Source: a virus (taxonomy: Duplodnaviria; Caudoviricetes). From it: a stretch of DNA of 27,566 nucleotides. The stretch covers positions 1-27,566 of the IMG/VR virus record IMGVR_UViG_3300031949_000140, one strand, 5' to 3'. The position numbers and the translations under genes are program-made. The stretch's first letter is position 1. Each line of letters begins with the position of its first letter. Below the pieces are notes generated by a model, which was not told where the DNA came from, ran no database searches, and saw only the letters and a list, made by a program, of their open reading frames with translations. Below are positions 2-22,789 of the stretch, piece after piece.

Positions 2-1489
2 GCCACTGATGTCAGCGGACTCAAGGTCAACAACGGCGAACTTCTTGCCGTCAGTCTTCCGGAACAACGCTCTGCCGGCCGAGCCTTCCCCACCGTTCTT
101 GCCTTGCACAGGAGCAAGCAACTGTTCGGTGTATGCAAGAACTGATCCAAGCAGGTGTTGCAACGCCTCGATGCGAATGGGGACCTTGAGGTCAAGCAAC
201 TGCAGCATAGGTGCAAACGCCATGCGGATACCCACGCCGGTGTTGGTGCCCGTTATGTTGCCAAATGCTGCATCGTTAAGGAATGAGAGATGGTGAATCG
301 CTTGGATGTAACGGTCGAGCAACCGCTCCACGGCATCGGGCACAGGCTGCCAATCCATTGGACCCAACTTCTCCTCCAACCCAATGGGAATGACAGCGCC
401 AGTCTCAAACGCAATGGCGGTCACATCCTGCTGAGGCTCATCCGACGCATACACCAGCGGTTTCTTGATGTGCAACCTAATCTCGGTTGCACTGTCACTC
501 AACGTCTCGTTGTAACGACGGTTGAGCGACTTGATGGCGTCAATGTCACTGCACGTGCCCTGCCACGTTGGGTCAGCCTCACCTGCAAAGATGTTACTGA
601 TGATCCAGAACGGTGGGCGACCCCACAAGTGCTTGCTGTGCTCCAGCAGCACAGCAGCTGTCTTTCCGCTCTCAATGCGGTCACCGAATCCATGTGGCCC
701 GCCACGCTTCTCCGTGGTCGCTACGCGCACGGTCAACGCAATGAGGTAGTAGTCATCGTGGTCCCAGTAGTGCAACAGCGTGCAAGTGGGTTCGACCTGG
801 TTGGCATCCAGCGACTCCAAGCCGCCTGTTGCTTCCAACTGCTTGCCGTAGCGCTGGCGGATCTCCTCGATAAGGCGGTTGCGATCCGGTCGAATGACGT
901 ACCAAAGATCCTCATTGGGGTCATCGTAACCAGTGAACACAGGGAAGAAGTCTTCGGGAGGAACATTGCGGAAGCGGAAAGAGGAACGCGAGCCACCTGG
1001 CAAAAACGAGTACTCGTGCACGAGGCGGTTGTCCTTGCCTTCACCCATCATGCGCACTTCGGGCGCGGTGTCGTGCTTCGTAAACACAGCCTGAATCACA
1101 CCGAAGCCCACCTTACATGCATTGTGCTCTGCACGGCGGTACGCTTTCATCAACTGCGGGAGCATCGACAACAGATAGGCCTCACGACGCTGAGCGGACA
1201 ACCGTGCATCTGGAGCGGCGGGCTCTGGCACCTGCAGCCTGAAGCCTTTGGATAGCACAGCGGCGTACTTCAGGACCACAACGCGTGAATAGTTCACCGT
1301 GATGGTCTCTTCGGTGCCACCCTCGCCCCCAGCATTGGAGTCTGTAGCGATCTCACCACCCTCGCTGTCTAGGGCCCACTGCTTGCCATCGAAGAAGTCC
1401 TGGAGCGTGAGGATGTTGCCGTTACGGGCGGAATACCGTGTTTTTAACTCGATGTATAGACTTTCTAACTCTTCTGCGGTCCGCTGCAT
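2..1489 (-). CDS. Phage portal protein (partial, runs off left edge)
   Basis: Manual translation from ATG at 1489: MQRTAEELESLYIELKTRYSARNGNILTLQDFFDGKQW...TITVNYSRVVVLKYAAVL. The frame appears open to the window edge (ends ...KFAVVDLESADISG), which would explain its absence from the ORF track. It lies directly after terL and has an SPP1-portal-like N-terminus. Confidence 0.75.
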   Translation of the reverse strand, partial: MQRTAEELESLYIELKTRYSARNGNILTLQDFFDGKQWALDSEGGEIATDSNAGGEGGTEETITVNYSRVVVLKYAAVLSKGFRLQVPEPAAPDARLSAQRREAYLLSMLPQLMKAYRRAEHNACKVGFGVIQAVFTKHDTAPEVRMMGEGKDNRLVHEYSFLPGGSRSSFRFRNVPPEDFFPVFTGYDDPNEDLWYVIRPDRNRLIEEIRQRYGKQLEATGGLESLDANQVEPTCTLLHYWDHDDYYLIALTVRVATTEKRGGPHGFGDRIESGKTAAVLLEHSKHLWGRPPFWIISNIFAGEADPTWQGTCSDIDAIKSLNRRYNETLSDSATEIRLHIKKPLVYASDEPQQDVTAIAFETGAVIPIGLEEKLGPMDWQPVPDAVERLLDRYIQAIHHLSFLNDAAFGNITGTNTGVGIRMAFAPMLQLLDLKVPIRIEALQHLLGSVLAYTEQLLAPVQGKNGGEGSAGRALFRKTDGKKFAVVDLESADISG

Positions 1490-3122
1490 TTTCCACTCTC
1501 TTCTGAACCACAGTCAGGAAGTGAGGTCCGTTCGGACCAGAACGCGCTTCGTGTTGCCCAACGTGACCATTGCGCCACTCACGCGCCGTAGTGGCCTGCC
1601 GCTGTGCATAGTGTGGCAACGGAAGTTTGTGACCTCGCACAGCACCGTACCGAGCGATGAGGAGGTACCACAGCGCCTTGAGTGCATCACACGGGAGACG
1701 CGCGTCCGGCACCTCGGATGGGAGGAAGTCACTGCCAACATCGGTCTCTTTGCGTCTGTAACGTGGAAACTCGTATCTGAGACCGTAACCTTGTCCACGA
1801 CCCTCCCAGTCTGCAATTTGCAGGTGTGGTGTGTGAATGAACAACGCATCCATGTCCACCGCTCCTGCACTCACGTCACCAACCGCTGGACGCTCGAAGT
1901 ACAAGAAACTGTGCAGGCGACGAATGCCTTGTAACTGCGGTATCTTGTCTGACTTCAACACAACGCCAGCACGTGACAGCCATCGACGCTTGCTGTCTGG
2001 CGCCTCGTGGTCGATGGCGCCCCCGCGTACATCGCGCCACCACGGCCGAGACATGCACACATCGATAATCTGCTCATCAATGAGACCTCGTTCCCACACC
2101 TCGTCAATAACGTTGCAGTAATCAATGCGGTCGTCCGGATCAGGGTCGGAATCAGACCAGAACTGACATGCCACTACAGCGTATGGATGACCACCGTCGG
2201 ACGGGTCGACACCTAGATAGACCGGCACCCCAGGTTTATAACCACATTGGTTCGCAGAACCAACGTGAATGGATTCGAGATAGTCTCGGAAGACAAGATT
2301 GACGGGCGGAGTAGGGACTCCACCGCAGCGCTCCTCAAAGAGACCAGGGACTCGGGAGTATACGCGCTCAAGTCGCTTGATTTCTGGATCATCGCGTCCG
2401 CCAGGATAGACGGCTAGATTAGACCACGAAGGAACCGAGAAACTGCGCCCACGAAACTCAAGATTGTTGCCCTGGAACTCACGAAACAACTCAGGAAACC
2501 AGCCGGTAGAGCCTTCAAATGTGCCCGAGCATACGAGCCATCCTCTGGTCTCACCCAGGCGACCGAAACACTTGAGAAATAGTGCATACGGCACGGTCGC
2601 AGCCTCAACAACGAGAATACCGTCCGGAGCGTCGGAGCGGACTTTGGAAATATCAAATCCGGACTTGGTTTCAATGATCTGTCCTGTCTTCAGTCGCATC
2701 CGCCACTGGTTGCGCATGGGCATTGACACTTCACGCTTGTCCACAGCGCCCAACTGCACAAACCACTGCAACGCGTACTCGAACTCTTTGTGTGTGCCTT
2801 CGTAGTCCTCGGCAATGATCCAGAAAAGGCGGCCCCACGGTGCACGCGTAACCAACTCCATTGCGGAGTAGTCCGACTTGCCACCGCGCTCACCGCCCGC
2901 TACGAGTTTGACTCTTGCTCGGCTTCTGAGTGGAGCGGCTTGGGCTGCACCGGGGCGTCGTCCAATGGTTCTGAGTATGTGGTCCTGCTGCTCCCAGGTT
3001 GGTCCGCCAACGATTCGGTCGGTCCAGGGCCAATCTCCATTGGCGTCTGGTCCTCCCCAGGCTGCTTCACCACGCCACTTGTGGCTGAAACCTTGGTCAA
3101 CTGATTGAGTAACATCACCCAT
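1422..3122 (-). CDS. terL: Terminase large subunit
   Basis: Q-motif-like PTWEQQ, Walker A AGGERGGKS, Walker B-like GILVVEAA, motif III CSGTFEG, RNase H-like nuclease YLGVDPS, late acidic motif CDALKALWY. Confidence 0.9.
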   Translation of the reverse strand: MGDVTQSVDQGFSHKWRGEAAWGGPDANGDWPWTDRIVGGPTWEQQDHILRTIGRRPGAAQAAPLRSRARVKLVAGGERGGKSDYSAMELVTRAPWGRLFWIIAEDYEGTHKEFEYALQWFVQLGAVDKREVSMPMRNQWRMRLKTGQIIETKSGFDISKVRSDAPDGILVVEAATVPYALFLKCFGRLGETRGWLVCSGTFEGSTGWFPELFREFQGNNLEFRGRSFSVPSWSNLAVYPGGRDDPEIKRLERVYSRVPGLFEERCGGVPTPPVNLVFRDYLESIHVGSANQCGYKPGVPVYLGVDPSDGGHPYAVVACQFWSDSDPDPDDRIDYCNVIDEVWERGLIDEQIIDVCMSRPWWRDVRGGAIDHEAPDSKRRWLSRAGVVLKSDKIPQLQGIRRLHSFLYFERPAVGDVSAGAVDMDALFIHTPHLQIADWEGRGQGYGLRYEFPRYRRKETDVGSDFLPSEVPDARLPCDALKALWYLLIARYGAVRGHKLPLPHYAQRQATTAREWRNGHVGQHEARSGPNGPHFLTVVQKRVENAADRRRVRKSIHRVKNTVFRP

Positions 3123-4650: not shown

Positions 4651-4679
4651 TTGACAATGTTGAGACGTTATCGTATGAT
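4651..4679 (+). promoter_or_regulatory. Sigma70-type promoter
   Basis: TTGACA (4651-4656), 17 bp spacer, TATGAT (4674-4679); SD AAGGAGG before ATG 4718. Confidence 0.8.
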
Positions 4680-4717: not shown

Positions 4718-5281
4718 ATGCCGCGACAGGTTGGAGTGCAACTGCCAGTTGAAACACAGGAAGCAATCGTGAAGGCCTACGTTGAGACCAAGACACCAGT
4801 GATGGCTATTGCTTTTGACAATGGTACCTCGGTTGCTACGGTCTACAAGGTGCTGTATATGTGGGGCGTTGAGATAAACCGTGACCGCAGCGGGTTCACA
4901 CGGAACCCCATAGCGGAGCAGATGGTCATTGCGCTCTATCAAAAGGGCGCTCAGATCATTGACATAGAGACTGCGACTTCTCTGTCGCCTGCCACGATAT
5001 ATGGTGTGCTGCGGAAGCACGGCGTGGAGTTGCGACGCATGAAGTCTGCCCAACGTCTTGAAGTATTGAAGCAGGCACGGCGCCGGCGCACGGTGTATGA
5101 AATTGCTGAGGAGACTGGTTTGGATATTGCAAAGGTCCGTGCGGTCATCAAGGCTGGCGGTCTGGAGTTGTACGTTGCAGATCCAGCGAGTCTTGTAAGC
5201 AACCTTGCGGCGGTTACGGTGGTTGCAACAGTTGCAACAGTTGACGTGGAGGACGTGGATGGCAAGGAAACTCTACCCTGA
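4718..5281 (+). CDS. DNA-binding protein with three tandem HTH-like repeats
   Basis: Repeats IAFDNGTSVATVYKVLYMWGVE / IETATSLSPATIYGVLRKHGVE / IAEETGLDIAKVRAVIKAGGLE; strong SD. Confidence 0.8.
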   Translation: MPRQVGVQLPVETQEAIVKAYVETKTPVMAIAFDNGTSVATVYKVLYMWGVEINRDRSGFTRNPIAEQMVIALYQKGAQIIDIETATSLSPATIYGVLRKHGVELRRMKSAQRLEVLKQARRRRTVYEIAEETGLDIAKVRAVIKAGGLELYVADPASLVSNLAAVTVVATVATVDVEDVDGKETLP

Positions 5282-5498
5282 TGTTTCGGATGGTCAGCCA
5301 ATTGTTATCAACTGGAGACAGCAGTACTATAAGATGGCGTGTTGTGACTGCAACTTGGTTCACAAGGTCTACTTCGACGTGAAAGGCAGCAGGTTGACCA
5401 TGCGTGTTTATCGCAGTAACCGCTCCACTAATGCATTGCGGCACCACCGTGGAGTACCCATTGCGGAGCAGACGAAGCAGACGAAGCAGACGACATGA
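5259..5498 (+). CDS. Small phage protein with CCDCxLVH (putative Zn-binding) motif
   Basis: SD GGAGG then ATG 5259; MACCDCNLVH motif; ATGA overlap with the next gene. Confidence 0.7.
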   Translation: MARKLYPDVSDGQPIVINWRQQYYKMACCDCNLVHKVYFDVKGSRLTMRVYRSNRSTNALRHHRGVPIAEQTKQTKQTT

Positions 5499-5710
5499 AC
5501 GTTGATGAGTTGGAGAACCGCAATCAACAGATACTTGCGCTCTTCGATAATGGCATGTCCATTGTTGATTTGGCGTTCGAGTTTGCTTTACCGCTGCCTC
5601 GCGTGATCTCGTTGCTGCGAGACCGCGGGCGGTTAACCGTTGCGAGGAACAAGTCAGGACTGTGGAATGACATCACTGATGCTGCCGGGCGGTCGCGCCT
5701 TAGTGGTTGA
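5495..5710 (+). CDS. Small HTH protein (Mor/sigma-region-4-like)
   Basis: RNQQILALFDNGMSIVDLAFEFALPLPRVISLL pattern; coupled start. Confidence 0.65.
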   Translation: MNVDELENRNQQILALFDNGMSIVDLAFEFALPLPRVISLLRDRGRLTVARNKSGLWNDITDAAGRSRLSG

Positions 5711-6047
5711 GAGCACTGGCGATGCAGACGCTGGGGTGATACTTGATCTATTCGATGTATTGGCGCGCGCCGGTGCACCCGCGTTTGCACTCATGGACGA
5801 GTTCGACTTGAAGGCTGAAGAGTGCTGGTCGTTGCTTGAACTTCGCGGTGTTGAGTTGAAGTTCGATAAACAATGGGTTCGCAAAGAGTTTGCATTATTG
5901 CAGTCCTTTGCAAGCATGTCAACAGAAAGCATGCTTCGTAGACAGTTTGATACCAATGCACGCTGGATGCGCAGAGTGTTGCGTGAATCTGGCGTCAGTG
6001 AAGAACGTACCTCGCTTACCTCGTACCATTCCCCGACTGGAAAGTAG
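5703..6047 (+). CDS. Hypothetical protein, possibly degenerate HTH repeats
   Basis: Overlaps the previous stop; segments ending LELRGVE and VLRESGVS resemble the repeats of 4718-5281; start uncertain. Confidence 0.5.
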   Translation: MVESTGDADAGVILDLFDVLARAGAPAFALMDEFDLKAEECWSLLELRGVELKFDKQWVRKEFALLQSFASMSTESMLRRQFDTNARWMRRVLRESGVSEERTSLTSYHSPTGK

Positions 6048-6364
6048 AAGTGGCCACTGGTTTTGTGGTTTCCATGGAGACACTTACGGAGACACATGTA
6101 TATCTACATATATATCATATATGTATATGTATCTTATCTGTATTTCTCCCGAACGCTGAATTATGTAATGTGTAAACGCATGTGTGCGCACACACGCAAC
6201 GTGCAACGTGTGTTGTGCATGATGTCGTGCGATGTGTGCACGTCACGCGCAACGCGCGATGTCGCAACGATGCATGACGTGTGACGTGTGTATTGCATGA
6301 TTAATTTTGTGCATCCATGCAACACGCACTGCTTGATCCCCCCTCGTTGCAACATCACACAACA

Positions 6365-6428
6365 TGACGAATGTCATACGAAACACATGACATTCGTCAC
6401 ATGACACACACGTACGATGTGATATGAT
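6365..6428 (+). promoter_or_regulatory. Early promoter with upstream inverted-repeat operator
   Basis: Perfect 13-bp IR TGACGAATGTCAT-N9-ATGACATTCGTCA (6365-6399); -35-like ATGACA 6401-6406; extended -10 TG-A-TATGAT 6420-6428. Confidence 0.7.
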
Positions 6429-6513
6429 GTGTGCATAACGAAACACATCACGCAACACACGACGTAAACGTGTGAAAATCAAAACGTGATGTACAAACGA
6501 CAACAAACACAAC

Positions 6514-6822
6514 ATGTCAAACAACACGACGAAACGCGATGTTACATCACACGACAACATGACAACATTCAACGTCAAATGTCGCAACGTTGCGCACGCG
6601 CAACGCATCATCGAATTGTTGCACACGAACGATGTTGAAACGTTCGTGTATCGTGCACAATACGATGCCGAACGTGCGAACATCGTCAACACGTACAAAC
6701 GCATGTTGCACGACATCGCAATCGCGCAAATCAAATCGCGCAACGATGATGACAACAACGTCGTTGACGCGATGAAACGTGACGTGATCGCGTATGCACG
6801 CGACAACAACATCACGATGTAA
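6514..6822 (+). CDS. Early protein, VYR-family paralogue 1 (no Gly/Pro/Trp)
   Basis: Aligns without gaps over ~55 aa with 7864-8154 (FNV...V..AQ.II...VYRA.Y..E...L....IA..K); flanked by promoter and terminator; start may be ATG 6514 or 6559. Confidence 0.8.
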   Translation: MSNNTTKRDVTSHDNMTTFNVKCRNVAHAQRIIELLHTNDVETFVYRAQYDAERANIVNTYKRMLHDIAIAQIKSRNDDDNNVVDAMKRDVIAYARDNNITM

Positions 6823-6845
6823 CACGCGCACATACAATTGAATAC

Positions 6846-6892
6846 GACAACGTAAACACACATCGACAACACGATGTGTGTTTTGTGTTGTC
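6846..6892 (+). terminator. Probable intrinsic terminator
   Basis: AAACACACATCG-acaaca-CGATGTGTGTTT perfect 12-bp stem (6854-6883) running into a T-rich tail; outer GACAAC/GTTGTC pairing. Confidence 0.7.
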
Positions 6893-7000
6893 ACACGCAT
6901 CACGCGCATCACGCACACGCACACGCACACATTGCGCGTGCACGCGCATCAACGCGACATAACGCATGTTCACAAATTCACAATCGAACAAATGATTCAG

Positions 7001-7064
7001 GACGAATGTCATATAAAACACATGACGTTTATCACGTTCAATTATGCGTCATTCGTTATACAAT
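7001..7064 (+). promoter_or_regulatory. Second copy of the operator/promoter; probably yields a leaderless mRNA
   Basis: GACGAATGTCATATAAAACACATGACGTTTATCAC closely matches 6366-6400; -10 TACAAT at 7059-7064 lies 6 nt before ATG 7071. Confidence 0.6.
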
Positions 7065-7070
7065 ACGTGC

Positions 7071-7388
7071 ATGAACGCGCACGTTTCATCGAACGACAAC
7101 GACACGCGCACGCGCAAACGCAAACGTGTTAACGTTGCATTCATGCAACGCATCGCACATGATGACGCGCAACACAACGCATCACGCGATGACACGTTGC
7201 GTGCAACGTTCACATGCAAATGTGATGTGTGTTCACACACGTATGACGCGAATTATGTGCGCGTGTTTGCACACGTGCGCGCAGTTGACAAACGTCAACA
7301 TGCAATGTGTGAACGTTGTTTACGCATTGCGCGTGATGACAACGACGTTAACACGTTCATGCGTGTTAACGGTTTGATGTATGCGTGA
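7071..7388 (+). CDS. Early protein with putative Zn finger (CxCxxC...CxxC)
   Basis: FTCKCDVCSH...AMCERC; no Pro or Trp and a single Gly at the zone edge; ATG sits at the predicted TSS. Confidence 0.65.
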   Translation: MNAHVSSNDNDTRTRKRKRVNVAFMQRIAHDDAQHNASRDDTLRATFTCKCDVCSHTYDANYVRVFAHVRAVDKRQHAMCERCLRIARDDNDVNTFMRVNGLMYA

Positions 7389-7416
7389 AGTTTCAACACA
7401 CACGAGGAGGTGTGAA

Positions 7417-7821
7417 GTGATATACATCAGCAAGAACGGCAAGGTGGACAGGTCGCGCACGTTCGAGGACCATGCGGCACGGCGCGATTGGCATCAAGCG
7501 AGTGGGCACACGTGGTCAACGGAAGGTTGGTGTTGGGTGGACGCTGACGGCAACAAGTATCGCACGTTCGTCGAACGCGACGAGAAGTGGTACGTCGTCA
7601 AGTACTTCAGTGAAGACAAGCGCAACAGCGTGATGCAAGATCGGTACGAGAAGGGGGAGTTGCAGCACGCAAAGGGGGACGCGCGAGCAGGAAGCGCAGA
7701 CGGTCGCGCCGTAGTGTATCGCGCGTCGGTGCAGTTGGGTCGCGTGTGGTATGATACGGTGTGCGAGTATCGCAACGGCGTATACAAGTCGTTGTCGCGC
7801 AGCGGCAAGTGCAGGAGTTAG
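7417..7821 (+). CDS. Hypothetical early protein (no Pro)
   Basis: Strong SD GAGGAGG 7404-7410 then GTG 7417. Confidence 0.75.
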   Translation: MIYISKNGKVDRSRTFEDHAARRDWHQASGHTWSTEGWCWVDADGNKYRTFVERDEKWYVVKYFSEDKRNSVMQDRYEKGELQHAKGDARAGSADGRAVVYRASVQLGRVWYDTVCEYRNGVYKSLSRSGKCRS

Positions 7822-7863
7822 CGTGCAATTCGGCACAACACACAACATGCAAAGGAGATTGCA

Positions 7864-8154
7864 ATGAAGAAAGTATTGGACAGCACGTTCGAGGGCAAGA
7901 ACTTCAACGTCAGCGCGCCCGACGTTGAAACGGCGCAGGAGATCATCAAGTTCGCCGCGGAACTCGGCGCGTCGGTTGTCGTGTATCGCGCCGAGTACAA
8001 GAAGGAAGACCAGGCACAGCGGCGTGTGGTGAGAGGCCTGCTCGAGCGCAGCACCATCGCTGCCTTGAAGGGTGACGACGCGAAAGCGGACGCGTTGAAG
8101 AACGAGGCGAAGGCGAAGGCGGAAGAGTACGGCATCAACCTCATCGGTCGGTAG
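7864..8154 (+). CDS. Early protein, VYR-family paralogue 2
   Basis: SD AAGGAG; similarity to 6514-6822 and 10254-10550. Confidence 0.85.
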   Translation: MKKVLDSTFEGKNFNVSAPDVETAQEIIKFAAELGASVVVYRAEYKKEDQAQRRVVRGLLERSTIAALKGDDAKADALKNEAKAKAEEYGINLIGR

Positions 8155-8223
8155 TGTCAGTCCTCCACCCGCCCACACAACGACCACCACGTGGTCCACA
8201 TACGCGAAACGGTGCTCACGCCG

Positions 8224-8296
8224 CGACACAAAGCGAAACGCAGCGCCGTAGCGAGGCAACGCAGCACGCGACCTTGCCTGACGATGCAAACGTGCG
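8224..8296 (+). ncRNA. Probable type II hammerhead ribozyme
   Basis: GAAA 8235-8238; stem III ACG/CGT; cleavage triplet GTA 8248-8250; stem I GCGAGG/CCTTGC; CTGACGA 8278-8284; short stem II GC/GC; pseudoknot GCACG(8264-8268)/CGTGC(8291-8295); intergenic. Confidence 0.7.
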
Positions 8297-8321
8297 ACAC
8301 ACAACACACAAGGAGACTACG

Positions 8322-8627
8322 ATGTCACAGTTCAAGCGCTCGCGCAAAGGTTGGTTGGTTATCGCTGCCGCTGCCTGTGCAATCGCGGGTTGCAGTGGTG
8401 GCGGCACGAAGACGGCGCAAGTCACGAGCGAACCCACCGTGCGTTACAGCACGCGCAAGGTGTACGCGGACGGCGCACCAGTGCCGTTGAACGATGTCGA
8501 TTGTCCCGAGGACTACACTCGGTCAGTGCTCGATGCGTGTGTGTCGCCTAGCGGCACGCCCGTGATGAGTGCTGCCGACGTGGCGTGGCGCGTGTCCGTT
8601 GGTCGCCTACAGTTCAAGGACAAGTAG
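8322..8627 (+). CDS. Lipoprotein
   Basis: SD AAGGAG; basic N-terminus, hydrophobic stretch and lipobox IAG-C (MSQFKRSRKGWLVIAAAACAIAGCSGGG). Confidence 0.75.
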   Translation: MSQFKRSRKGWLVIAAAACAIAGCSGGGTKTAQVTSEPTVRYSTRKVYADGAPVPLNDVDCPEDYTRSVLDACVSPSGTPVMSAADVAWRVSVGRLQFKDK

Positions 8628-8640
8628 TCGCTTCACACGC

Positions 8641-8799
8641 GAGCATGGGGCAGTGCGGTGTAGTGAGGGTTGCCGAGCGCGCCCACATCAATACCTGCCC
8701 CTGCTTCCTTCCCTGATGCCCGCACCGATATATTCTAGTAACCTAGGTAAGTGCAGAGCGAGTTCACGCCTCGCCGGTGCGGACATGAGGAAAGGAGGC
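8641..8799 (+). promoter_or_regulatory. Structured RNA leader that can sequester the SD of the 8808 gene
   Basis: Long imperfect stem 8703-8727/8775-8799 includes AGGAGG; upstream stem GGGGCAG/CTGCCCC. Confidence 0.5.
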
Positions 8800-8807
8800 A
8801 ATTGACA

Positions 8808-9149
8808 ATGGCGACGATAAGACGCAAACTGCGCTACCCACCCGACCACATCACCAATGAACACGTACCCGACACACTCGCAGACGCAATCATGCGTAAC
8901 GTACCCGACGAACCCAACACTGCGTCCGCGTGGCTGCTGCACGACGACGCGCCCGTGTCCTCATGTGTGGATGGGCACCGCAACTCGCCCAGCACACAAC
9001 CAGTCGAGGCGTTCTCGTCTGGGGTGGAAGCAGTTCCGCTGCGCGGGCGCCATCTGCCTGTGCAACCTGTGAACGTGAGTGGACTTGTCTTAGTGCACCA
9101 TGCACATACAGTGTGTGGTGTGGTTGAACAACCCAGGAGGTTACAGTGA
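8808..9149 (+). CDS. Hypothetical protein
   Basis: SD AAAGGAGG before ATG 8808; stop overlaps the next GTG start. Confidence 0.55.
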   Translation: MATIRRKLRYPPDHITNEHVPDTLADAIMRNVPDEPNTASAWLLHDDAPVSSCVDGHRNSPSTQPVEAFSSGVEAVPLRGRHLPVQPVNVSGLVLVHHAHTVCGVVEQPRRLQ

Positions 9150-9400
9150 GTTCATTTGGTGAAGATGTCAACGCTGCCCGCTACGAGGCAATCGAACTTG
9201 CCCACCAGTTGAGCAAGCAGTGCCCGCAGTGTGAGTCAACGGGCAAGTCGTTGGTTGAAGTCCGTTTGGCACTGCCTCTGCCCAACGTGAGCCGCGCACC
9301 GACTCCAGTCATCACGGTCATCTTTGACACCGAGACGGGCGTGGCACCAGATGATGCGTGGATGTACTGCCACGGATGCCGAACACTCTACAAGTTGTAA
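9146..9400 (+). CDS. Small Zn-ribbon protein
   Basis: SD AGGAGG; CPQC...CHGC. Confidence 0.7.
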   Translation: MSSFGEDVNAARYEAIELAHQLSKQCPQCESTGKSLVEVRLALPLPNVSRAPTPVITVIFDTETGVAPDDAWMYCHGCRTLYKL

Positions 9401-9409
9401 GGAGAAACC

Positions 9410-9625
9410 ATGAGAGCCGAATCACTCTACACGATCTACTACCACCACAAGAACGTCCGGAAGTTGTATCGGGCGTGTGTGGAAGGTATCGACCGTGGTC
9501 CCTTCCACCGGACCCGCGGCGATGCACTCGACTACCGACTCGCCTGGCTGCACAATCGCGACGTTGTACGTCGCCAGCGTGCAGCCGTTGCTGCAAAGGA
9601 GGCACAGCATGCCACAACAGTTTGA
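9410..9625 (+). CDS. Hypothetical protein
   Basis: SD AAGGAG, ATG 9410. Confidence 0.65.
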   Translation: MRAESLYTIYYHHKNVRKLYRACVEGIDRGPFHRTRGDALDYRLAWLHNRDVVRRQRAAVAAKEAQHATTV

Positions 9626-9809
9626 TCCGAGTGCAATGGATGCTGCTGGCGAGGCCGCCGAGCAGGAGTTCTTCGCTCACGAGGCGGCGGCCGAGGGTCA
9701 CAGCGCGGACCTTCTCTGGGTCTGCAAGTGGATGGAGCGCTGGTACTTAACCGCCGGGTACAAGAGACTCGGGCGGATTCTAGTCACTTACGCAAAGGAG
9801 GCAACATGA
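9609..9809 (+). CDS. Hypothetical phage protein (WY.TAGYKRLGR)
   Basis: SD AAGGAGG, ATG 9609, coupled to the next gene. Confidence 0.7.
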   Translation: MPQQFDPSAMDAAGEAAEQEFFAHEAAAEGHSADLLWVCKWMERWYLTAGYKRLGRILVTYAKEAT

Positions 9810-10111
9810 CACCCACGCAGAAGGCACAGCGATTGCTTCGTCTGTTGGAGGTCACGGACAAAGCAGCGAAGGCCATTGACAGTGGTGCGACCGTGAGCAT
9901 CTCTGTGTTTGGGTTGAACACACCCGATGGCAACCGCGAGTTGGCGCAAGCACTTCTCTTCACTGAAGGTGCTGCACAACACACCGGCGGCGGCACCTCA
10001 TGGGTCAACGCCCCGCTTGATGGGGTTGGTCCACACGTCACCGTGTTCTACGAGGACGCGGAGCCTGCTCCTGTTCCTGCTCCCGAGGAGGACGACGAGA
10101 TACCATTCTAA
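9806..10111 (+). CDS. Hypothetical protein with SSB-like acidic C-terminal tip (EEDDEIPF)
   Basis: SD AAGGAGG, ATG 9806; C-terminus PAPVPAPEEDDEIPF. Confidence 0.75.
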   Translation: MTPTQKAQRLLRLLEVTDKAAKAIDSGATVSISVFGLNTPDGNRELAQALLFTEGAAQHTGGGTSWVNAPLDGVGPHVTVFYEDAEPAPVPAPEEDDEIPF

Positions 10112-10125
10112 ACCCGTCAACGTCG

Positions 10126-10186
10126 AGATGCGATCTTTGAATCGTTGAGATCGCATCTTGCCATCGTTGCACGCTTGTTGTATGAT
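10126..10186 (+). promoter_or_regulatory. Sigma70-type promoter with abutting inverted repeat
   Basis: IR AGATGCGATCT-N11-AGATCGCATCT (10126-10158); TTGCCA 10158-10163, 17 bp spacer, TATGAT 10181-10186. Confidence 0.7.
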
Positions 10187-10253
10187 AAACGTGCACGAAT
10201 CAACCCGCCGTTGCGCGTATCGCGCACGAGCACCACACAAGGAGAGTGAAACC

Positions 10254-10550
10254 ATGGCAGGCAGTAGCGTAATCAAGATCACGAGCGTTGATCAGGTTGG
10301 CGACGTGACTCGCATCGCAGTGAAGTTCCCCGACGAGGCCTCCGTCCGCAAGGCCCTCGTCCAGTCCCTCCTGGACAACGGCTGCGAGTTGACGGTCTAC
10401 CGCGGTGCGTCCTCGTACAACCCCGAGAAGGCAGCGGCCGCGCGTGCCACTCAGAAGGCACTGGTCGAGGCAGCGTTGCAGTCGATGAAGACCGGCCGCC
10501 CGGCCACCGACTTCCTTTCACCTGAACTGGCGGCGAAGATCAGCGGCTGA
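10254..10550 (+). CDS. VYR-family paralogue 3
   Basis: SD AAGGAG; LLDNGCELTVYRGASSYNPEKA resembles LHTNDVETFVYRAQYDAERA of 6514-6822. Confidence 0.8.
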   Translation: MAGSSVIKITSVDQVGDVTRIAVKFPDEASVRKALVQSLLDNGCELTVYRGASSYNPEKAAAARATQKALVEAALQSMKTGRPATDFLSPELAAKISG

Positions 10551-10562
10551 TCGCAGGCGCAC

Positions 10563-10596
10563 GAAGCCAGCGTTGTTAGGGACCAGCGCTGGCTTC
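10563..10596 (+). terminator. Hairpin after 10254-10550 (possible terminator or processing site)
   Basis: GAAGCCAGCG / CGCTGGCTTC perfect 10-bp stem; weak U-tract. Confidence 0.5.
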
Positions 10597-10632
10597 AACT
10601 TGCTCTCATCCATAACAATTCTGGAGGAAACC

Positions 10633-11055
10633 ATGGAAGACTTGACACCCAACGATGATGGCCTCCCCAACGAGGTCAACTATTTCGAGGCAGCGTTGTA
10701 CCTGGGTCACTCCGGTACGACGCGCGTGCAACACCTCTTGCGTGTGGGCATTCTTGCGCGTGGCACCACATCCAAGACCATCACCCGCGAGTCTCTGCTC
10801 ATCTACGCTGTGGGTCGCCGCCAGCCCAACACAGACGCCTTGTGGTATAAGGTGCAGTTGACGCAGGAGCAGTCGGCGGTGTTGAATAACCCGCTCGATT
10901 ACGCTACGTCCCAAGTGATGGAGGCGTTGGAGGGGCTCGCCTTCGAGCGCTTGCACAAGTACGACGACGCTGCAAAGGAGCGCCGCCGGCGCCGTGAGTT
11001 CAAGGATGCAGGCGTGCTGCAAGGGCGCTTGCCGGAGGGGTTCAAACATGACTGA
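10633..11055 (+). CDS. Excisionase/MerR-like HTH DNA-binding protein
   Basis: SD GGAGGA; NYFEAALYLGHSGTTRVQHLLRVGIL...ITRESL pattern. Confidence 0.6.
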   Translation: MEDLTPNDDGLPNEVNYFEAALYLGHSGTTRVQHLLRVGILARGTTSKTITRESLLIYAVGRRQPNTDALWYKVQLTQEQSAVLNNPLDYATSQVMEALEGLAFERLHKYDDAAKERRRRREFKDAGVLQGRLPEGFKHD

Positions 11056-11377
11056 GATCGTTGTCAAGCACAGAGCACCGGCCCTGCATTACTGGGCTGA
11101 TGCACCCGTGCACCGTGACTACCTACGTGTGCCACACCGCCACCTCTTCACTTACGTTGTGCGTCTCGAAGTGCACCACGGTGACCGAGAAGTTGAGTTC
11201 CATGACGTGCTGCAGTGGTTGGCTGCGCGCGTGTGCGTTGATTGGGGCGGGCGGTCGTGCGAGAACATCGCGGCTGACCTTCGCATGGCGATGCTGAGCC
11301 GCCAGCCCAACCACGTAAGGTGTACCGTCGAGGTGTGGGAGGACGACGAGTGTGGCGCTGTGGTGAGCGGTGACTAA
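11048..11377 (+). CDS. dpdL: QueD-paralogous T-fold protein, DpdL-like (predicted 7-carboxy-7-deazaguanine decarboxylase)
   Basis: HYWADAP...YLRVPHRHLF...HGDREVEF...SCENIA...VWEDDECGA; the LxxxHRHxF motif is recalled as the DpdL signature (needs an HMM check); queD/queE/folE/dpdA present and no queC. Confidence 0.6.
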   Translation: MTEIVVKHRAPALHYWADAPVHRDYLRVPHRHLFTYVVRLEVHHGDREVEFHDVLQWLAARVCVDWGGRSCENIAADLRMAMLSRQPNHVRCTVEVWEDDECGAVVSGD

Positions 11378-19346: not shown

Positions 19347-19793
19347 ATGTACGCAAAGATAACACGAGAATACACGTTCGACGCTGCCCACCTGCTGCCA
19401 GGCTACAACGGCAAGTGTGCTCACCTGCACGGACACACGTATCGACTGCTCGTGCAAGTATCAGGCGAGGTGAGCGACGAAGTTGGCAACAGTGATGACG
19501 CCATGGTCATGGACTTCGCTGACCTTGACGCCATCGTCAAACCACTTGTCTCCAAACTCGACCACCGCTTCATTGCAAAAGGTGACGAGTGGCCGTGCAA
19601 CGCTGCACGACTGGCCGGCGTGGATGACGTGTTCTACATGGGCCAGCGGACCACTGCAGAGAACATCGCCGGGTGGTTTGCTCACTGGGTCAGCAAAGGA
19701 TTGTCGACTATGGCTCCCAGCAGCGAGTTCGACACGAACTGCATCGTGTTTGAGACACCACGCAGCAGCGCCAGCGTGCGGTGGGAGGGTTGA
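19347..19793 (+). CDS. queD: 6-carboxy-5,6,7,8-tetrahydropterin synthase
   Basis: FDAAHLL...CAHLHGHTY, MVMDF, LDH, TTAENIA, FETP. Confidence 0.93.
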   Translation: MYAKITREYTFDAAHLLPGYNGKCAHLHGHTYRLLVQVSGEVSDEVGNSDDAMVMDFADLDAIVKPLVSKLDHRFIAKGDEWPCNAARLAGVDDVFYMGQRTTAENIAGWFAHWVSKGLSTMAPSSEFDTNCIVFETPRSSASVRWEG

Positions 19794-19794
19794 C

Positions 19795-20520
19795 ATGCAC
19801 ACGTACAACATCAACGAGGTCTTCACGTCGTTCCAGGGAGAGGGTGTGCACTGTGGTGAGCAAGCAACATTCATCCGCGCACAGGGTTGTCCAGTGGGCT
19901 GCCCGTGGTGCGACAGTGGACCGAACTATCACCCGGACGAACCGCTCTACGACGCCGTGGGGCAACGTGTGGAGGGCGTCAGCCACGTTCCGTCTGCAGG
20001 CAACACGTGGCCAGGCGTGGGTGGCGCAAAGATGACCGAGTACGATCTCTGTGCCCGCATACCCACTGACATACCACGCATTGTCATCACCGGTGGCGAA
20101 CCAGCGCTGCAGGACTGGGACGACTTCATCAACTGCTGGGAGTCCTACGTCGGGCACCATCGCACGGTCATTGCGTTGGAGACAAGCGGCCAGTACGAGT
20201 GGCGTGGCAGTCGCTGGCCTGACTGGGTGACCGTGTCACCGAAGTGGTCCGGCAACCCATGGCACGTGGAAGGCGTGTACTGGACCTACGTGGACGAGTT
20301 GAAGTACGTGGTGGACGACCGCTTCGATGACTCCATCGTGGCCGAGCACCTTCGCCAACTGCGTGAACTATGTCCGCAACGCGGCATGCCATACATCGTG
20401 CTCATGCCTGAAGGTGCTCCGCCGAACCAAGGGACGACCGAGCGCACGTTGTCGTTCCTCAAGAAGCACCACGACTGGCGTGCGGGACCACGACTGCAAT
20501 ACGACTGGAGGGTGAAGTGA
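19795..20520 (+). CDS. queE: 7-carboxy-7-deazaguanine synthase (radical SAM)
   Basis: EVFTSFQGEG, FIRAQGCPVGCPWCD, VITGGEP, ETSG, TVSPK. Confidence 0.93.
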   Translation: MHTYNINEVFTSFQGEGVHCGEQATFIRAQGCPVGCPWCDSGPNYHPDEPLYDAVGQRVEGVSHVPSAGNTWPGVGGAKMTEYDLCARIPTDIPRIVITGGEPALQDWDDFINCWESYVGHHRTVIALETSGQYEWRGSRWPDWVTVSPKWSGNPWHVEGVYWTYVDELKYVVDDRFDDSIVAEHLRQLRELCPQRGMPYIVLMPEGAPPNQGTTERTLSFLKKHHDWRAGPRLQYDWRVK

Positions 20521-21092
20521 AACCACTAATAGAGCCGCATGTCGCCATTGGGTATGCACTGACGAAAATCTTCGGCGCAACGTGGGCCGAGGGTCAGCAT
20601 GCACGAGACACAGCACAACGCATACTCAGGTACTGGCAGGCACTTGTCCCACCTCCAGTTGCGTCATTGGACAAGGCGTTCACCACCTTCAAGAATGAAC
20701 CACGTGCAAAGCAGATGGTGGTGTGCTGTAACATTCCATTTCACTCTGCCTGCGCCCACCACCTCCTGCCGTTCGAGGGTCATGTCCACATCGGCTATAC
20801 ACCGGATGCTGTGCTCTGTGGGCTGTCGAAGTTCCCACGTGCCGTGAACCACTTCGCACAGCGTCCACAGATCCAAGAGTTGATGGGGCGTGAACTGGCT
20901 GACTACCTCTATGCCAAACTGGAACCACACGGTCTGGGCATACGCGTAGTTGCCGTACATACCTGCACCACCTGCAGAGGCGTTGTTGCACCAGGCACCC
21001 TGATGGTCACAGACATCATGCTTGGCGACTTTCAGCGTTACGAAACCCTCAAGCAGGAGTTCCTATCCATGATTCGAGAAAGGACACCGTGA
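20517..21092 (+). CDS. folE: GTP cyclohydrolase I
   Basis: SACAHHLLPFEG, GLSKFPR, RPQIQE, HTCTTCRGV. Confidence 0.93.
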   Translation: MKPLIEPHVAIGYALTKIFGATWAEGQHARDTAQRILRYWQALVPPPVASLDKAFTTFKNEPRAKQMVVCCNIPFHSACAHHLLPFEGHVHIGYTPDAVLCGLSKFPRAVNHFAQRPQIQELMGRELADYLYAKLEPHGLGIRVVAVHTCTTCRGVVAPGTLMVTDIMLGDFQRYETLKQEFLSMIRERTP

Positions 21093-21511
21093 TGTCGTAC
21101 ACACCTGACGAGAAGGCGCTCATCGAGCGCGAGATGGCTGCATTCTGGACGAACTACACCGGACTGCTCAACGATGCCAAGCACATTGCAGAAGAACGCG
21201 GTAAAGAGTCCGGTGACAACACGCCTCCCTGGCACAAGATCTCCATGCGTGATGGCGTCATCACACTGCTGCGAATGAAGATCGAGCGCCTGGTTGACTG
21301 TACACCGGATAAGTGCATCGAGGAGTGCAAGGACATCATCAACTACGCGGGCTACCTCGCCGCATACACGTTGATGGTGAACAACATCCACCCGCCGGTT
21401 GTCACCAGCCAGGGCACACCGCCTGCAGTGAAGTTAGAGCCTGTAGACCAGACACCACATGCAAGTATCACTGCTGCACAGGCACTGGCTGCAAGAGAGG
21501 TGAAGAAATGA
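21089..21511 (+). CDS. Helical protein, DUF1599/nucleotide-modification-associated-like
   Basis: LRMKIERL...EECKDIINYA pattern, located inside the modification cluster. Confidence 0.5.
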   Translation: MMSYTPDEKALIEREMAAFWTNYTGLLNDAKHIAEERGKESGDNTPPWHKISMRDGVITLLRMKIERLVDCTPDKCIEECKDIINYAGYLAAYTLMVNNIHPPVVTSQGTPPAVKLEPVDQTPHASITAAQALAAREVKK

Positions 21512-22266
21512 AACTGGCCATCGTTGCGTCCCCGTCGACAGTGAAGTACGCCCGCCCCCTCGCCGGTGGTTACCACATGGCGCTGGCACACCTCATCCGT
21601 GACGACACCAGTTATCGTGAGTGGTACAACACGCGGGCGAGTTGGATGAACAGCGAAGTCATCCTTGACAACGGAGCGGCCGAGTTCGGCGTGGCAATGC
21701 GACCAGAGGAACTCCTCAGGATTGTTCGTGACTTCAAGCCAACTGTGTGGGTGATGCCTGATGTCATCATGGAGACCGCAGCCACGATGTGGTACTTCCA
21801 CATGACGCTGACGCTGAAGGACTTGCCACTGCCATTCATGGTGGTTCCGCAGGGGCGCAACTTCTCTGAGTGGTTGGACTGCTTCAACTCCATGAGAGAT
21901 GCACTAACTGAGCGCAACATGACCGCGTGGCTAGGCATCAGCAAGTTCTGCTTGCGCCACACCGAGCGGCTGACCATCCTGGAGATGCTCGCAGGCAACC
22001 TGCCTTCGTGCTTCACACACGTCCACCTCCTCGGTCTAGAAGATCCGCAGGAACTGTTGAAGGCTGCACAGATGTACCCATGGGTGCATGGATGCGATAC
22101 ATCTACACCCATCGCCATGGGACTCAAAGGCTTGCGCTGTCAGGACTACACTACCAAGATCGACATGGATTGGAGAGAGCATCACATCGACGCGGGTGAA
22201 GATGCTCTCATCCGCAACAACGTAAACTACCTCGTGGAGTTGGCACGTGGATACCAGGCTAAATAA
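21508..22266 (+). CDS. dpdA: DNA guanine transglycosylase (TGT fold), DpdA-like
   Basis: ILDNGAAE, MPDV, VVPQG, HLLG, GCDTSTP motifs; adjacent to queD-queE-folE; ATG 21508 coupled to the previous stop. Confidence 0.75.
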   Translation: MKLAIVASPSTVKYARPLAGGYHMALAHLIRDDTSYREWYNTRASWMNSEVILDNGAAEFGVAMRPEELLRIVRDFKPTVWVMPDVIMETAATMWYFHMTLTLKDLPLPFMVVPQGRNFSEWLDCFNSMRDALTERNMTAWLGISKFCLRHTERLTILEMLAGNLPSCFTHVHLLGLEDPQELLKAAQMYPWVHGCDTSTPIAMGLKGLRCQDYTTKIDMDWREHHIDAGEDALIRNNVNYLVELARGYQAK

Positions 22267-22351: not shown

Positions 22352-22502
22352 CATCGTTGTTCTGGTCACGTTTGGCGGCTTCTTGATCTGTGCATACCTG
22401 GCAGGCAAGAAGAGATCCTGGACTGGCAAGTTGGTCATCCTCCTCATTGAACTGACAGCACTGGGAATGGTTCTGCAGTACGCAGGGTTGGTGTTGCCAT
22501 GA
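22344..22502 (+). CDS. Small two-TM membrane protein (52 aa)
   Basis: Manual translation MGDIVVLVTFGGFLICAYLAGKKRSWTGKLVILLIELTALGMVLQYAGLVLP; ATGA overlap with the next gene. Confidence 0.55.
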   Translation: MGDIVVLVTFGGFLICAYLAGKKRSWTGKLVILLIELTALGMVLQYAGLVLP

Positions 22503-22789
22503 ACATCAAGCAGGAGGTTGCTGACTACATCACCGCGAAAACTGCACAGGGTAAGTGGACGACGCCACCTTTGCAGGATGCGCTGTGCTTCCTCGTGACC
22601 GAGGTGGATGAGGCGCTGGAGGCATACATGCGCACGAAGCCTGAGTACGTCCGCAACGACCCCACCAAGAAGTATGACCTGGGCAAGGAACTCGCGGATG
22701 TGGTGTTAATGGCATTCGTGTGTGCTCAGGTAGGAGGGTTCGACATTGAGACAGAACTTGCCATCACACTTAGCACTACCAGACGTTGA
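22499..22789 (+). CDS. MazG-like nucleotide pyrophosphohydrolase
   Basis: LVTEVDEALEA...KELADVVL (ExxE...ExxD). Confidence 0.8.
   Translation: MNIKQEVADYITAKTAQGKWTTPPLQDALCFLVTEVDEALEAYMRTKPEYVRNDPTKKYDLGKELADVVLMAFVCAQVGGFDIETELAITLSTTRR

Follow-up and report, generated by a model that had tools for sequence, protein, structure and literature searches.

The window analysed here is an entire virus contig of 27,566 nt (IMG/VR record IMGVR_UViG_3300031949_000140). It contains an island from which the dinucleotide RG (a purine followed by G) has been almost entirely purged, on both strands over zone A and then on the template strand over zone B. Zone A holds p1, the first of three paralogous open reading frames (ORFs), p1, p2 and p3, and the p1 protein is itself recoded to obey the DNA rule. 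The genome carries genes of a 7-deazaguanine pathway, and the island may allow p1 to be read from DNA that escapes the phage's own modification. An initial annotation had placed the three ORFs at 6514–6822, 7864–8154 and 10254–10550, and all were found as claimed (Table 1).

Results

A nearly RG-free island surrounds p1

Across zone A, RG was observed 3 times against 149.2 expected, and CY, its complement (C followed by a pyrimidine), 10 times against 143.3 expected. Within the core of the zone (6345–7370) the counts were 3 and 1, respectively. In zone B, CY was observed 4 times versus 62.6 expected, while RG reached 92 versus 65.1 expected. As CY stays absent and RG returns on the coding strand, only the template strand is still RG-free there. 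The bias then faded downstream, with CY per 100 nt climbing from 0.9 in z4, an ORF of zone B, to 5.5 in p2, 8.2 in the next gene and 11–14 beyond. For z4, the 4 CY steps compare with 30.3 expected from its own codon usage, and RG was normal. The rule was exactly the dinucleotide RG/CY: no trinucleotide was depleted further (observed/expected 0.86–1.18), and GA and TC counts in the island were near normal. The constrained zone of DNA that had been proposed around p1 is therefore real, and wider than claimed, since the template-only stretch runs to about 7900.

Avoidance of ultraviolet-induced pyrimidine dimers was ruled out as the cause of the island, TT and TC being normal, as was an mRNA-level cause acting alone, zone A being clean on both strands. 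Long antisense ORFs in zone A were set aside as shadows, because stops are rare without AG and the third codon positions of the plus-strand frame vary most.

The p1 protein is recoded

The p1 protein contained no Gly, Pro or Trp (0/0/0), as the initial annotation had stated. It had also stated that p1 never places V, A, D, E or G after K, Q, E or M; this held at all 15 such positions, compared with 12 such pairs in p2 and 7 in p3. A further claim, that Pro or Gly in p2 is replaced by Arg, Asp, Ser or Asn in p1, was right for five sites. Six of the seven Pro/Gly residues of p2 aligned to p1 Met, Arg, Asp, Arg, Ser and Asn, so that Met had been omitted, and the seventh lies beyond the p1 end.

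At the DNA level, p1 contained no AG, GG or CT and a single CC (at 6668). This lone CC is forced by the Ala-Glu of YDAER, and protein selection therefore wins at one site. With the protein held fixed, CY was observed once and RG not at all, against 16.7 and 17.2 expected from genome codon usage. For p2, at the fading edge, CY was 16 versus 21.9 expected, with 31/500 simulations as low.

The effect on the protein was measured as the minimal number of forbidden steps needed to encode it. This was 1 for p1, whereas its shuffled residues needed 13 on average. The recoded homologues P0016, P0019, P0020 and P0026 were codable with 0–2 forbidden steps. Shuffles of these five proteins needed 13–17, and 0/200 were as low in each case. 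In contrast, p2, p3 and five normal homologues needed 27–40 steps, like their own shuffles. The gap in the recoded proteins indicates that the DNA rule shapes both residue content and residue order, bearing out the earlier proposal that selection on DNA overrode the protein sequence of p1.

Relatives carry the same island

Genome G001 (95% complete) was syntenic with the window throughout, added an SU10-type capsid, a portal and a 2,422-aa protein, and carried the same deazaguanine pathway. L098 is a 2-kb metagenome contig. Both contained a two-strand void of 1.0–1.2 kb with a p1 orthologue, at about 45,330–46,520 in G001 and about 250–1240 in L098, followed by a template-only zone. Homologues of p1 thus sit in the same type of island, a check that had been suggested with the initial annotation. 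The sole zone-A gene common to the window, G001 and L098 was p1; a second recoded ORF, z3, was common to the window and L098 only. Three homologues beyond G001 and L098 shared the recoding signature of p1. A recoded homologue cluster (P0016/P0030) and a DpdA3 homologue (P0004) were each found on a 51,421-nt contig, presumably the same one.

That p1 is a real ORF, as had been argued from the window, is supported by its island orthologues in G001 and L098, by mismatches biased towards the third codon position (38/33/53 between the window and L098), by a promoter-like site and by a hairpin after the stop. For z3, which had no match in G001, identity to the L098 ORF was 56% and mismatches by codon position were 48/46/60.

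Some additional features of these genomes were observed. At the left edge of zone A in the window, G001 and L098, the plus strand was RG-free 40–70 nt ahead of the minus strand (in the window, counting a short C-rich patch near 6340 raises this lead to about 250 nt), and the two clean intervals were staggered at both ends in all three. On the minus strand of G001, 22697–28334 encodes three glycosyltransferase-like genes, a B12 radical-SAM enzyme and a methyltransferase-like gene beside the capsid gene; this set may serve virion glycosylation or DNA hypermodification. The 2,422-aa protein of G001 (30510–37778, minus strand), between the portal and capsid region, is a possible ejection protein; it had no family match, and a regular-expression search found no DxDGD-type polymerase motif.

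The three ORFs form one family

The paralogy proposed for p1, p2 and p3 was assessed using local BLOSUM62 scores against 5000 double shuffles. The p1–p2 score of 78 was clearly significant (shuffle mean 25.3, maximum 58; 0/5000 as high). Scores for p1–p3 (50; 3/5000 shuffles) and p2–p3 (54; 2/5000) were marginal alone, and p3 was weak in pairwise hhalign (probability 20.6%, E = 0.0011). Membership of p3 was established by profile search. A profile built without p3-type sequences recovered p3 at E = 6 × 10−4, and two p3 relatives at about 10−5, among 13,360 sequences (best decoy E = 0.13). In the reverse search, p3-type profiles recovered p1 and p2.

A profile search of 1.84 billion representatives gave 15 matches, comprising p1, p3, P0002, eight other members and four long repetitive proteins; P0021, P0022, P0024 and P0025 were dropped from the family as proteins of this last kind. 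A further search added homologue P0027, and P0019, being the L098 protein, was not counted twice. In a 14-row tree, recoded proteins lay on one side of a branch with support 96/95, and p3-type proteins formed a separate group (100/98). The p3-type clade is distant, so the functions of the copies may have diverged. The normal-composition protein P0017 was placed among the recoded proteins on a long, unsure branch; it shares VETFVYR with p1 and is possibly an unrecoded p1-type copy. A Tyr-Arg pair in p1 was invariant. Net charge (K + R − D − E) was 0 for p1, +1 for p2 and +2 for p3, within a family range of −2 to +4.

G001 had two copies only, p1 and p3, and no p2-type copy was found there at E ≤ 0.1. 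Viral contigs searched with p2, and species genomes searched with the p1 and terminase alignments, returned nothing. Cultured phages gave no match to p1 or p3. Contigs aligned on p1 differed by one change, outside the ORF, and were uninformative.

The genome encodes a deazaguanine pathway

The window encodes QueD, QueE and FolE, a DpdL-like protein and a DpdA3-like guanine transglycosylase. The QueD motif CxxxHGH was present as CAHLHGH in 19347–19793. The motif LxxxHRHxF, by which DpdL is defined (bioRxiv 2023.04.13.536721), was present as LRVPHRHLF. For the DpdA3-like protein, the best annotated phage matches were Flavobacterium immuto_2-6A (27%, E = 2 × 10−10) and phiST (26%, E = 7 × 10−7); the assignment to DpdA3 rests on these best matches rather than on a subfamily tree. 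A crude motif search for QueC was negative in the window, a partial genome, and in G001.

A set of FolE, QueD, QueE, DpdL and DpdA3 predicts 7-deazaguanine, as described by Cui et al., and characterised DpdA3 phages replace all G (bioRxiv 2023.04.13.536721). The pathway genes support the modified-DNA context suggested in the initial annotation, and RG is therefore likely to be the modified, or the most harmful, context. The RG-only void suggests context-dependent rather than complete replacement of G. An unnamed helical protein (21089–21511) and a MazG-like pyrophosphatase (22499–22789) flank DpdA3 in the window; the pair may deplete the dGTP pool, and that would point to incorporation ahead of replication.

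Other DpdA3 phages purge a different gene

Unrelated DpdA3 phages were found to purge coding-strand C (template G) in one early tandem helix-turn-helix (HTH) gene, the paralogues being normal. In this gene, CY was 0 versus 13.8 expected in G004, 0 versus 15.4 in G005 and 0 versus 8.6 in G017. In G005, a DpdA3/DpdL phage, a 2,364-nt block (C1:59534–61897; L140, L222) had 4 C on the coding strand; it adjoined the terminase operon, and a C-free promoter preceded each of its several short genes. Where C persisted in G004, G017 and G028, it stood before purines, so that template RG is again spared. The tandem-HTH family is the same design as p1, p2 and p3 with a different protein. G017 and G028 had a QueC-like motif in place of DpdL, and the effect is therefore not tied to one derivative. 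In G027, a two-strand RG/CY void (C1:1290–1560) covered a divergent promoter region beside the terminase genes, and its 925–1281 had no match to the p1 family profile.

In a scan of 29 DpdA3-like IMG/VR records, two of them covered in part, a clear gene-level void was found in 4/29 (G001, G004, G005 and G017) and a partial void in 2/29 (G027, promoter only, and G028, weak at 10/500). C-free 100-mers occurred in 6/49 records. The voids of G014 were rejected as purged genes, being non-coding repeats, as was the single C-free 100-mer of G028, whose match was not on the coding strand of the HTH gene. No RG void occurred within ±10 kb of DpdA3 at 80 loci (0/80), because the island lies further off.

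A control drawn through terminase (80 loci) showed a strong HTH purge only in G005 again and in the fragment L284, with DpdA3 in 8/30 records searched; this control is small, ascertained largely through DpdA3 and phylogenetically non-independent. L219, found through its HTH gene, had normal composition, and no DpdA3 was seen in this 47%-complete record. No match to the G005 HTH protein was found in cultured phages.

Fold and family searches with p1

Weak photolyase and mutase matches to p2 fell below the cut-off. AlphaFold2 modelled p2 as beta-alpha-beta plus a helical hairpin (predicted local distance difference test, pLDDT, 66) and p1 with unpaired N-terminal strands (pLDDT 84; predicted template modelling score 0.47). 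The two models agreed on three helices, as compared without superposition. Foldseek against PDB and BFVD gave 0 matches at E ≤ 0.001, the best VIA-align match had Z = 7.4 with the listed matches covering the helical hairpin only, and the ESM Atlas gave no usable feature match and only generic structure rows. PHROGs, through which homology to T5 pre-early proteins was sought, gave no match to the zone proteins.

Other features of the window

Coordinates are collected in Table 1. The 50-mer of the p1 promoter-like site contained 0 RG/CY. A hairpin 3′ of the p1 stop was present in the window, L098 and G001, its sequence differing between phages. The inverted repeat just 5′ of the promoter-like site may be an operator; L098 had two perfect copies and G001 none, and a search of viral contigs with the pattern found nothing. 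Rfam gave 0 matches over 5900–10700.

The terminase operon lies on the minus strand, while the plus strand carries small early ORFs, a helicase, a nuclease, a primase and a family A DNA polymerase with an N-terminal uracil-DNA glycosylase domain (23540–26032). Left of the island, a near-consensus promoter at 4651 precedes three ORFs (4718–6047), of which the first encodes a repeated HTH with weak matches to the CRISPR repeat-binding Cbp1 and T5 D5-like families. A near-perfect leftward promoter-like site (5922–5894, minus strand; 11/12) lies antisense to the HTH genes. The sequencing runs containing window DNA were soil metagenomes, one of them perhaps the source, and no RNA dataset was listed among them.

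Table 1. Positions of features in the window and of purged genes in other phages
Feature	Sequence	Position	Strand	Remarks
Terminase large subunit	Window	1422..3122	-	PHROG 2; late operon directed away from island
Zone A	Window	6157..7370	both	5′-RG (AG/GG; CT/CC on +) nearly absent
Inverted repeat TGTCAT-N9-ATGACA	Window	6372..6392		Just 5′ of promoter-like site; operator-like
Promoter-like site ATGACA-16-TATGAT	Window	6401..6428	+	Sigma70-type, extended -10; consensus match only
p1, recoded paralogue	Window	6514..6822	+	102 aa; no Gly/Pro/Trp; no GGAG-type ribosome site
Terminator-like hairpin after p1	Window	6854..6883	+	
Inverted repeat, second copy	Window	7007..7027		Imperfect
z3, second recoded ORF	Window	7044..7388	+	Two CxxC pairs, zinc-finger-like by sequence; start uncertain
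Zone B	Window	7371..7900	+	Template strand RG-free, coding strand normal; fades through p2
z4, zone-B ORF	Window	7381..7821	+	No Pro, 11 Gly, 6 Trp
p2, paralogue at zone B edge	Window	7864..8154	+	96 aa; P0002 match at 58%
Promoter-like site TTGCCA-17-TATGAT	Window	10158..10186	+	RG/CY-poor patch 5′ of p3
p3, distant paralogue in normal DNA	Window	10254..10550	+	98 aa; syntenic orthologue P0023 in G001
DpdL-like T-fold protein	Window	11048..11377	+	LxxxHRHxF present; ACP17 match at 39%
QueD, QueE, FolE	Window	19347..21092	+	Pfam and PHROGs
DpdA3-like guanine transglycosylase	Window	21508..22266	+	Weak Pfam DpdA match
Purged tandem-HTH copy	G004	C1:1097-1381	-	
Purged tandem-HTH copy	G017	C1:36239-36619		
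Purged tandem-HTH copy	G028	C1:30078-30434		
Purged tandem-HTH copy	L284	1505-1807		

Discussion

Four explanations of the island were weighed, all of which leave the island and the recoding intact. Our first choice, held at somewhat below even confidence, is that the island and the recoding of p1 dodge the phage's own RG modification, and that p1, read first, probably inhibits a host enzyme by which the modified base is excised or the DNA cut there. The DpdA3/DpdL pathway would likely put 7-deazaguanine at RG steps, or the harm would be greatest there. The island would enter first, or be read first by host RNA polymerase, and p1 is predicted to be the first product of this unmodified DNA. Clean double strands in zone A would avoid breaks, and a clean template may be enough for the next genes, since coding-strand lesions would not corrupt the transcript. 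From modified DNA, p2 and p3 may then take over the task of p1, in the same or a varied form.

Template-only purging of whole genes indicates that the cost falls on template reading, and whole-gene purging calls for an obstacle beyond initiation. Lesions from excision or cutting would risk breakage whichever strand they hit, would disturb transcription when on the template, and would arise in some hosts only, which matches the patchy distribution of the island. Host enzymes of this kind are known: Dag1 excises and nicks at 7-deazaguanine, bare 7-deazaguanine included (bioRxiv 2025.10.29.685425), and END nucleases target G-modified phages, for which phage inhibitors exist (PMC12191111). T5-like phages resist restriction only if their first-transfer DNA has no sites (PMC10644984), and DpdA enzymes can be motif-specific, as with GA in iggy (PMC10484667).

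Several results weigh against evasion of self-modification with p1 as a counter-defence protein. Complete replacement of G in characterised DpdA3 phages does not predict an RG-only void unless the enzyme is motif-specific, and without staged entry the remainder of the genome would be open to attack. No void was found in 23/29 of the DpdA3-like records scanned or in any of the named deazaguanine-pathway phages (0/8, one of them covered in part). The next closest relative, G002, was syntenic (terL 46%) and carried DpdA3 and DpdL, yet had no island; its ORF 1451–1687, within C1:1–5000 and weakly resembling p3, matched the family profile only at E = 3.8. HTH copies in the DpdA3-positive G033, L231 and L239 were unpurged, and voids of other words scored similarly to the weaker RG/C cases. 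The proteins p1–p3 had no match of substance in Pfam, PHROGs or NCBIfam. DNA-mimic inhibitors of the Ocr/Ugi type carry strong net negative charge, and an acidic mimic of this kind was ruled out for p1 by its neutrality. Finally, the island gene of the HTH phages looks like a DNA-binding regulator, which fits a role in transcription equally well.

Such a role is the basis of a second explanation, which we consider possible and distinctly less probable: the obstacle would be host RNA polymerase, the base would be bulkier than 7-deazaguanine, and p1, later p2 and p3, would help to use modified promoters or templates. The template-strand asymmetry agrees with this, as do the two-strand void of G027, limited to the promoter region, and the island gene of G004, G017 and G028, a single tandem HTH. 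Promoter-like patches at 4651 and 10158 were likewise RG/CY-poor, with 4 RG/CY steps per 50 nt against a mean of 11.8 (0.8% of background 50-mers had ≤5), but the matching promoters of G001, with 6 and 9 per 50 nt, showed weaker depletion. Initiation is inhibited by bulky 7-substituted G, and the transferases, radical-SAM enzyme and methyltransferase-like protein of G001 could hypermodify; the transferase genes, however, are neighbours of the capsid gene, and their target may instead be the virion. Moreover, bare 7-deazaG was transcribed very efficiently by bacterial RNA polymerase in vitro, and major-groove substituents alone gave no elongation block (Raindlova et al., PMC4838386), so that a plain polymerase block would require a bulkier base. 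The fully substituted phiST has no void. As bare 7-deazaguanine poses no block in vitro, counter-defence was ranked above an RNA polymerase helper; the initial annotation had named an anti-defence protein and a factor enabling expression of modified DNA as its two candidates, and these in vitro data weigh against a simple polymerase block by the bare base.

A third explanation, which appears unlikely, is that the lesion is a host-made, RG-preferring guanine adduct, from a DarT1-like guanine ADP-ribosyltransferase or similar, with p1 as antidote and the deazaguanine genes incidental. DarT1 targets guanine. Its activity on phage DNA, and the antidotes that phages carry against it, are documented (PMC11257639); the patchy distribution of islands among DpdA3 phages would also fit. 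The accessible part of that report, however, gives no DarT1 motif, and no NADAR (as in the anti-DarT1 factor AdfN; E ≤ 0.01) or macrodomain Pfam match was found for p1–p3. All three checkable island genomes and three HTH cases carried DpdA3, though most were found through DpdA3, and none of six DpdA3-negative records of at least 85% completeness had a purged HTH gene, or indeed any HTH match, near terminase. Least likely of all, the island could be kept for a DNA-level job, such as a packaging, ejection or replication signal, with p1 a recoded passenger: the island adjoins the terminase operon start in the window, G001, G004, G005 and G027, and on its left side lies non-coding, repeat-rich DNA that includes an inverted repeat, but this repeat is absent from G001, template-only zone B crosses coding genes in all three phages, and p1 is kept in all three islands despite normal paralogues.

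Evasion of the phage's own modification has partial parallels in known systems. The phiST DpdA3/DpdL system for 2′-deoxy-7-deazaguanine (dDG) resembles that of the window in its FolE, QueD, QueE, DpdL LxxxHRHxF motif, DpdA3-like transglycosylase and MazG-like neighbour (bioRxiv 2023.04.13.536721). It replaces all G, and lacks both a compositional island and the p1 family, whereas the window avoids RG only, and locally. The first-step-transfer region of T5/BF23 is likewise a small early region, free of dangerous sites, that encodes host-takeover and counter-defence proteins; there, the avoided sequences are 5–8-base host restriction sites in unmodified DNA (PMC10644984). In the window a dinucleotide is purged, strand-specifically and down to amino-acid choice. 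Staged entry is hypothetical here, and the local absence of harmful sites is matched by analogy only; adjacency to the terminase operon was seen. Anti-END inhibitors (PMC12191111) and predicted Dag inhibitors (bioRxiv 2025.10.29.685425) are small phage proteins that would protect modified DNA; no sequence or fold link between them and p1 was found, and the accessible parts of these reports mention no motif-free island. The DpdA1 enzymes of iggy (GA) and CAjan (GA/GGC) replace guanine at the dinucleotide level (PMC10484667), but there G is followed by A rather than preceded by a purine, and neither genome has a comparable void. In the literature searched, which scarcely covered subscription papers, nothing was found on the p1 family or on an early island that lacks a modification motif.

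The finding addresses the question of how a phage with modified DNA achieves its first gene expression, before its own proteins are present and amid host enzymes directed against the modified base. The island points to the single gene that had to be kept clear of modified DNA. This makes p1 a direct candidate for a counter-defence or transcription factor, with its normal-sequence paralogues as built-in controls, and the modification context (RG) is predicted from sequence alone. In the p1 family, moreover, selection acting on the DNA has clearly stripped proteins of Gly, Pro and Trp. On balance, we lean slightly towards a more general view. G-modifying phages would repeatedly have evolved a launch island purged of their own motif, at first in both strands and further on in the template alone, that holds a duplicate of a key gene recoded at the protein level. 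The purged word would then reveal where the modification lies, at RG in this phage and at all G in some tandem-HTH phages, and the p1 family would represent a novel class of factors enabling modified DNA to be used in the host.

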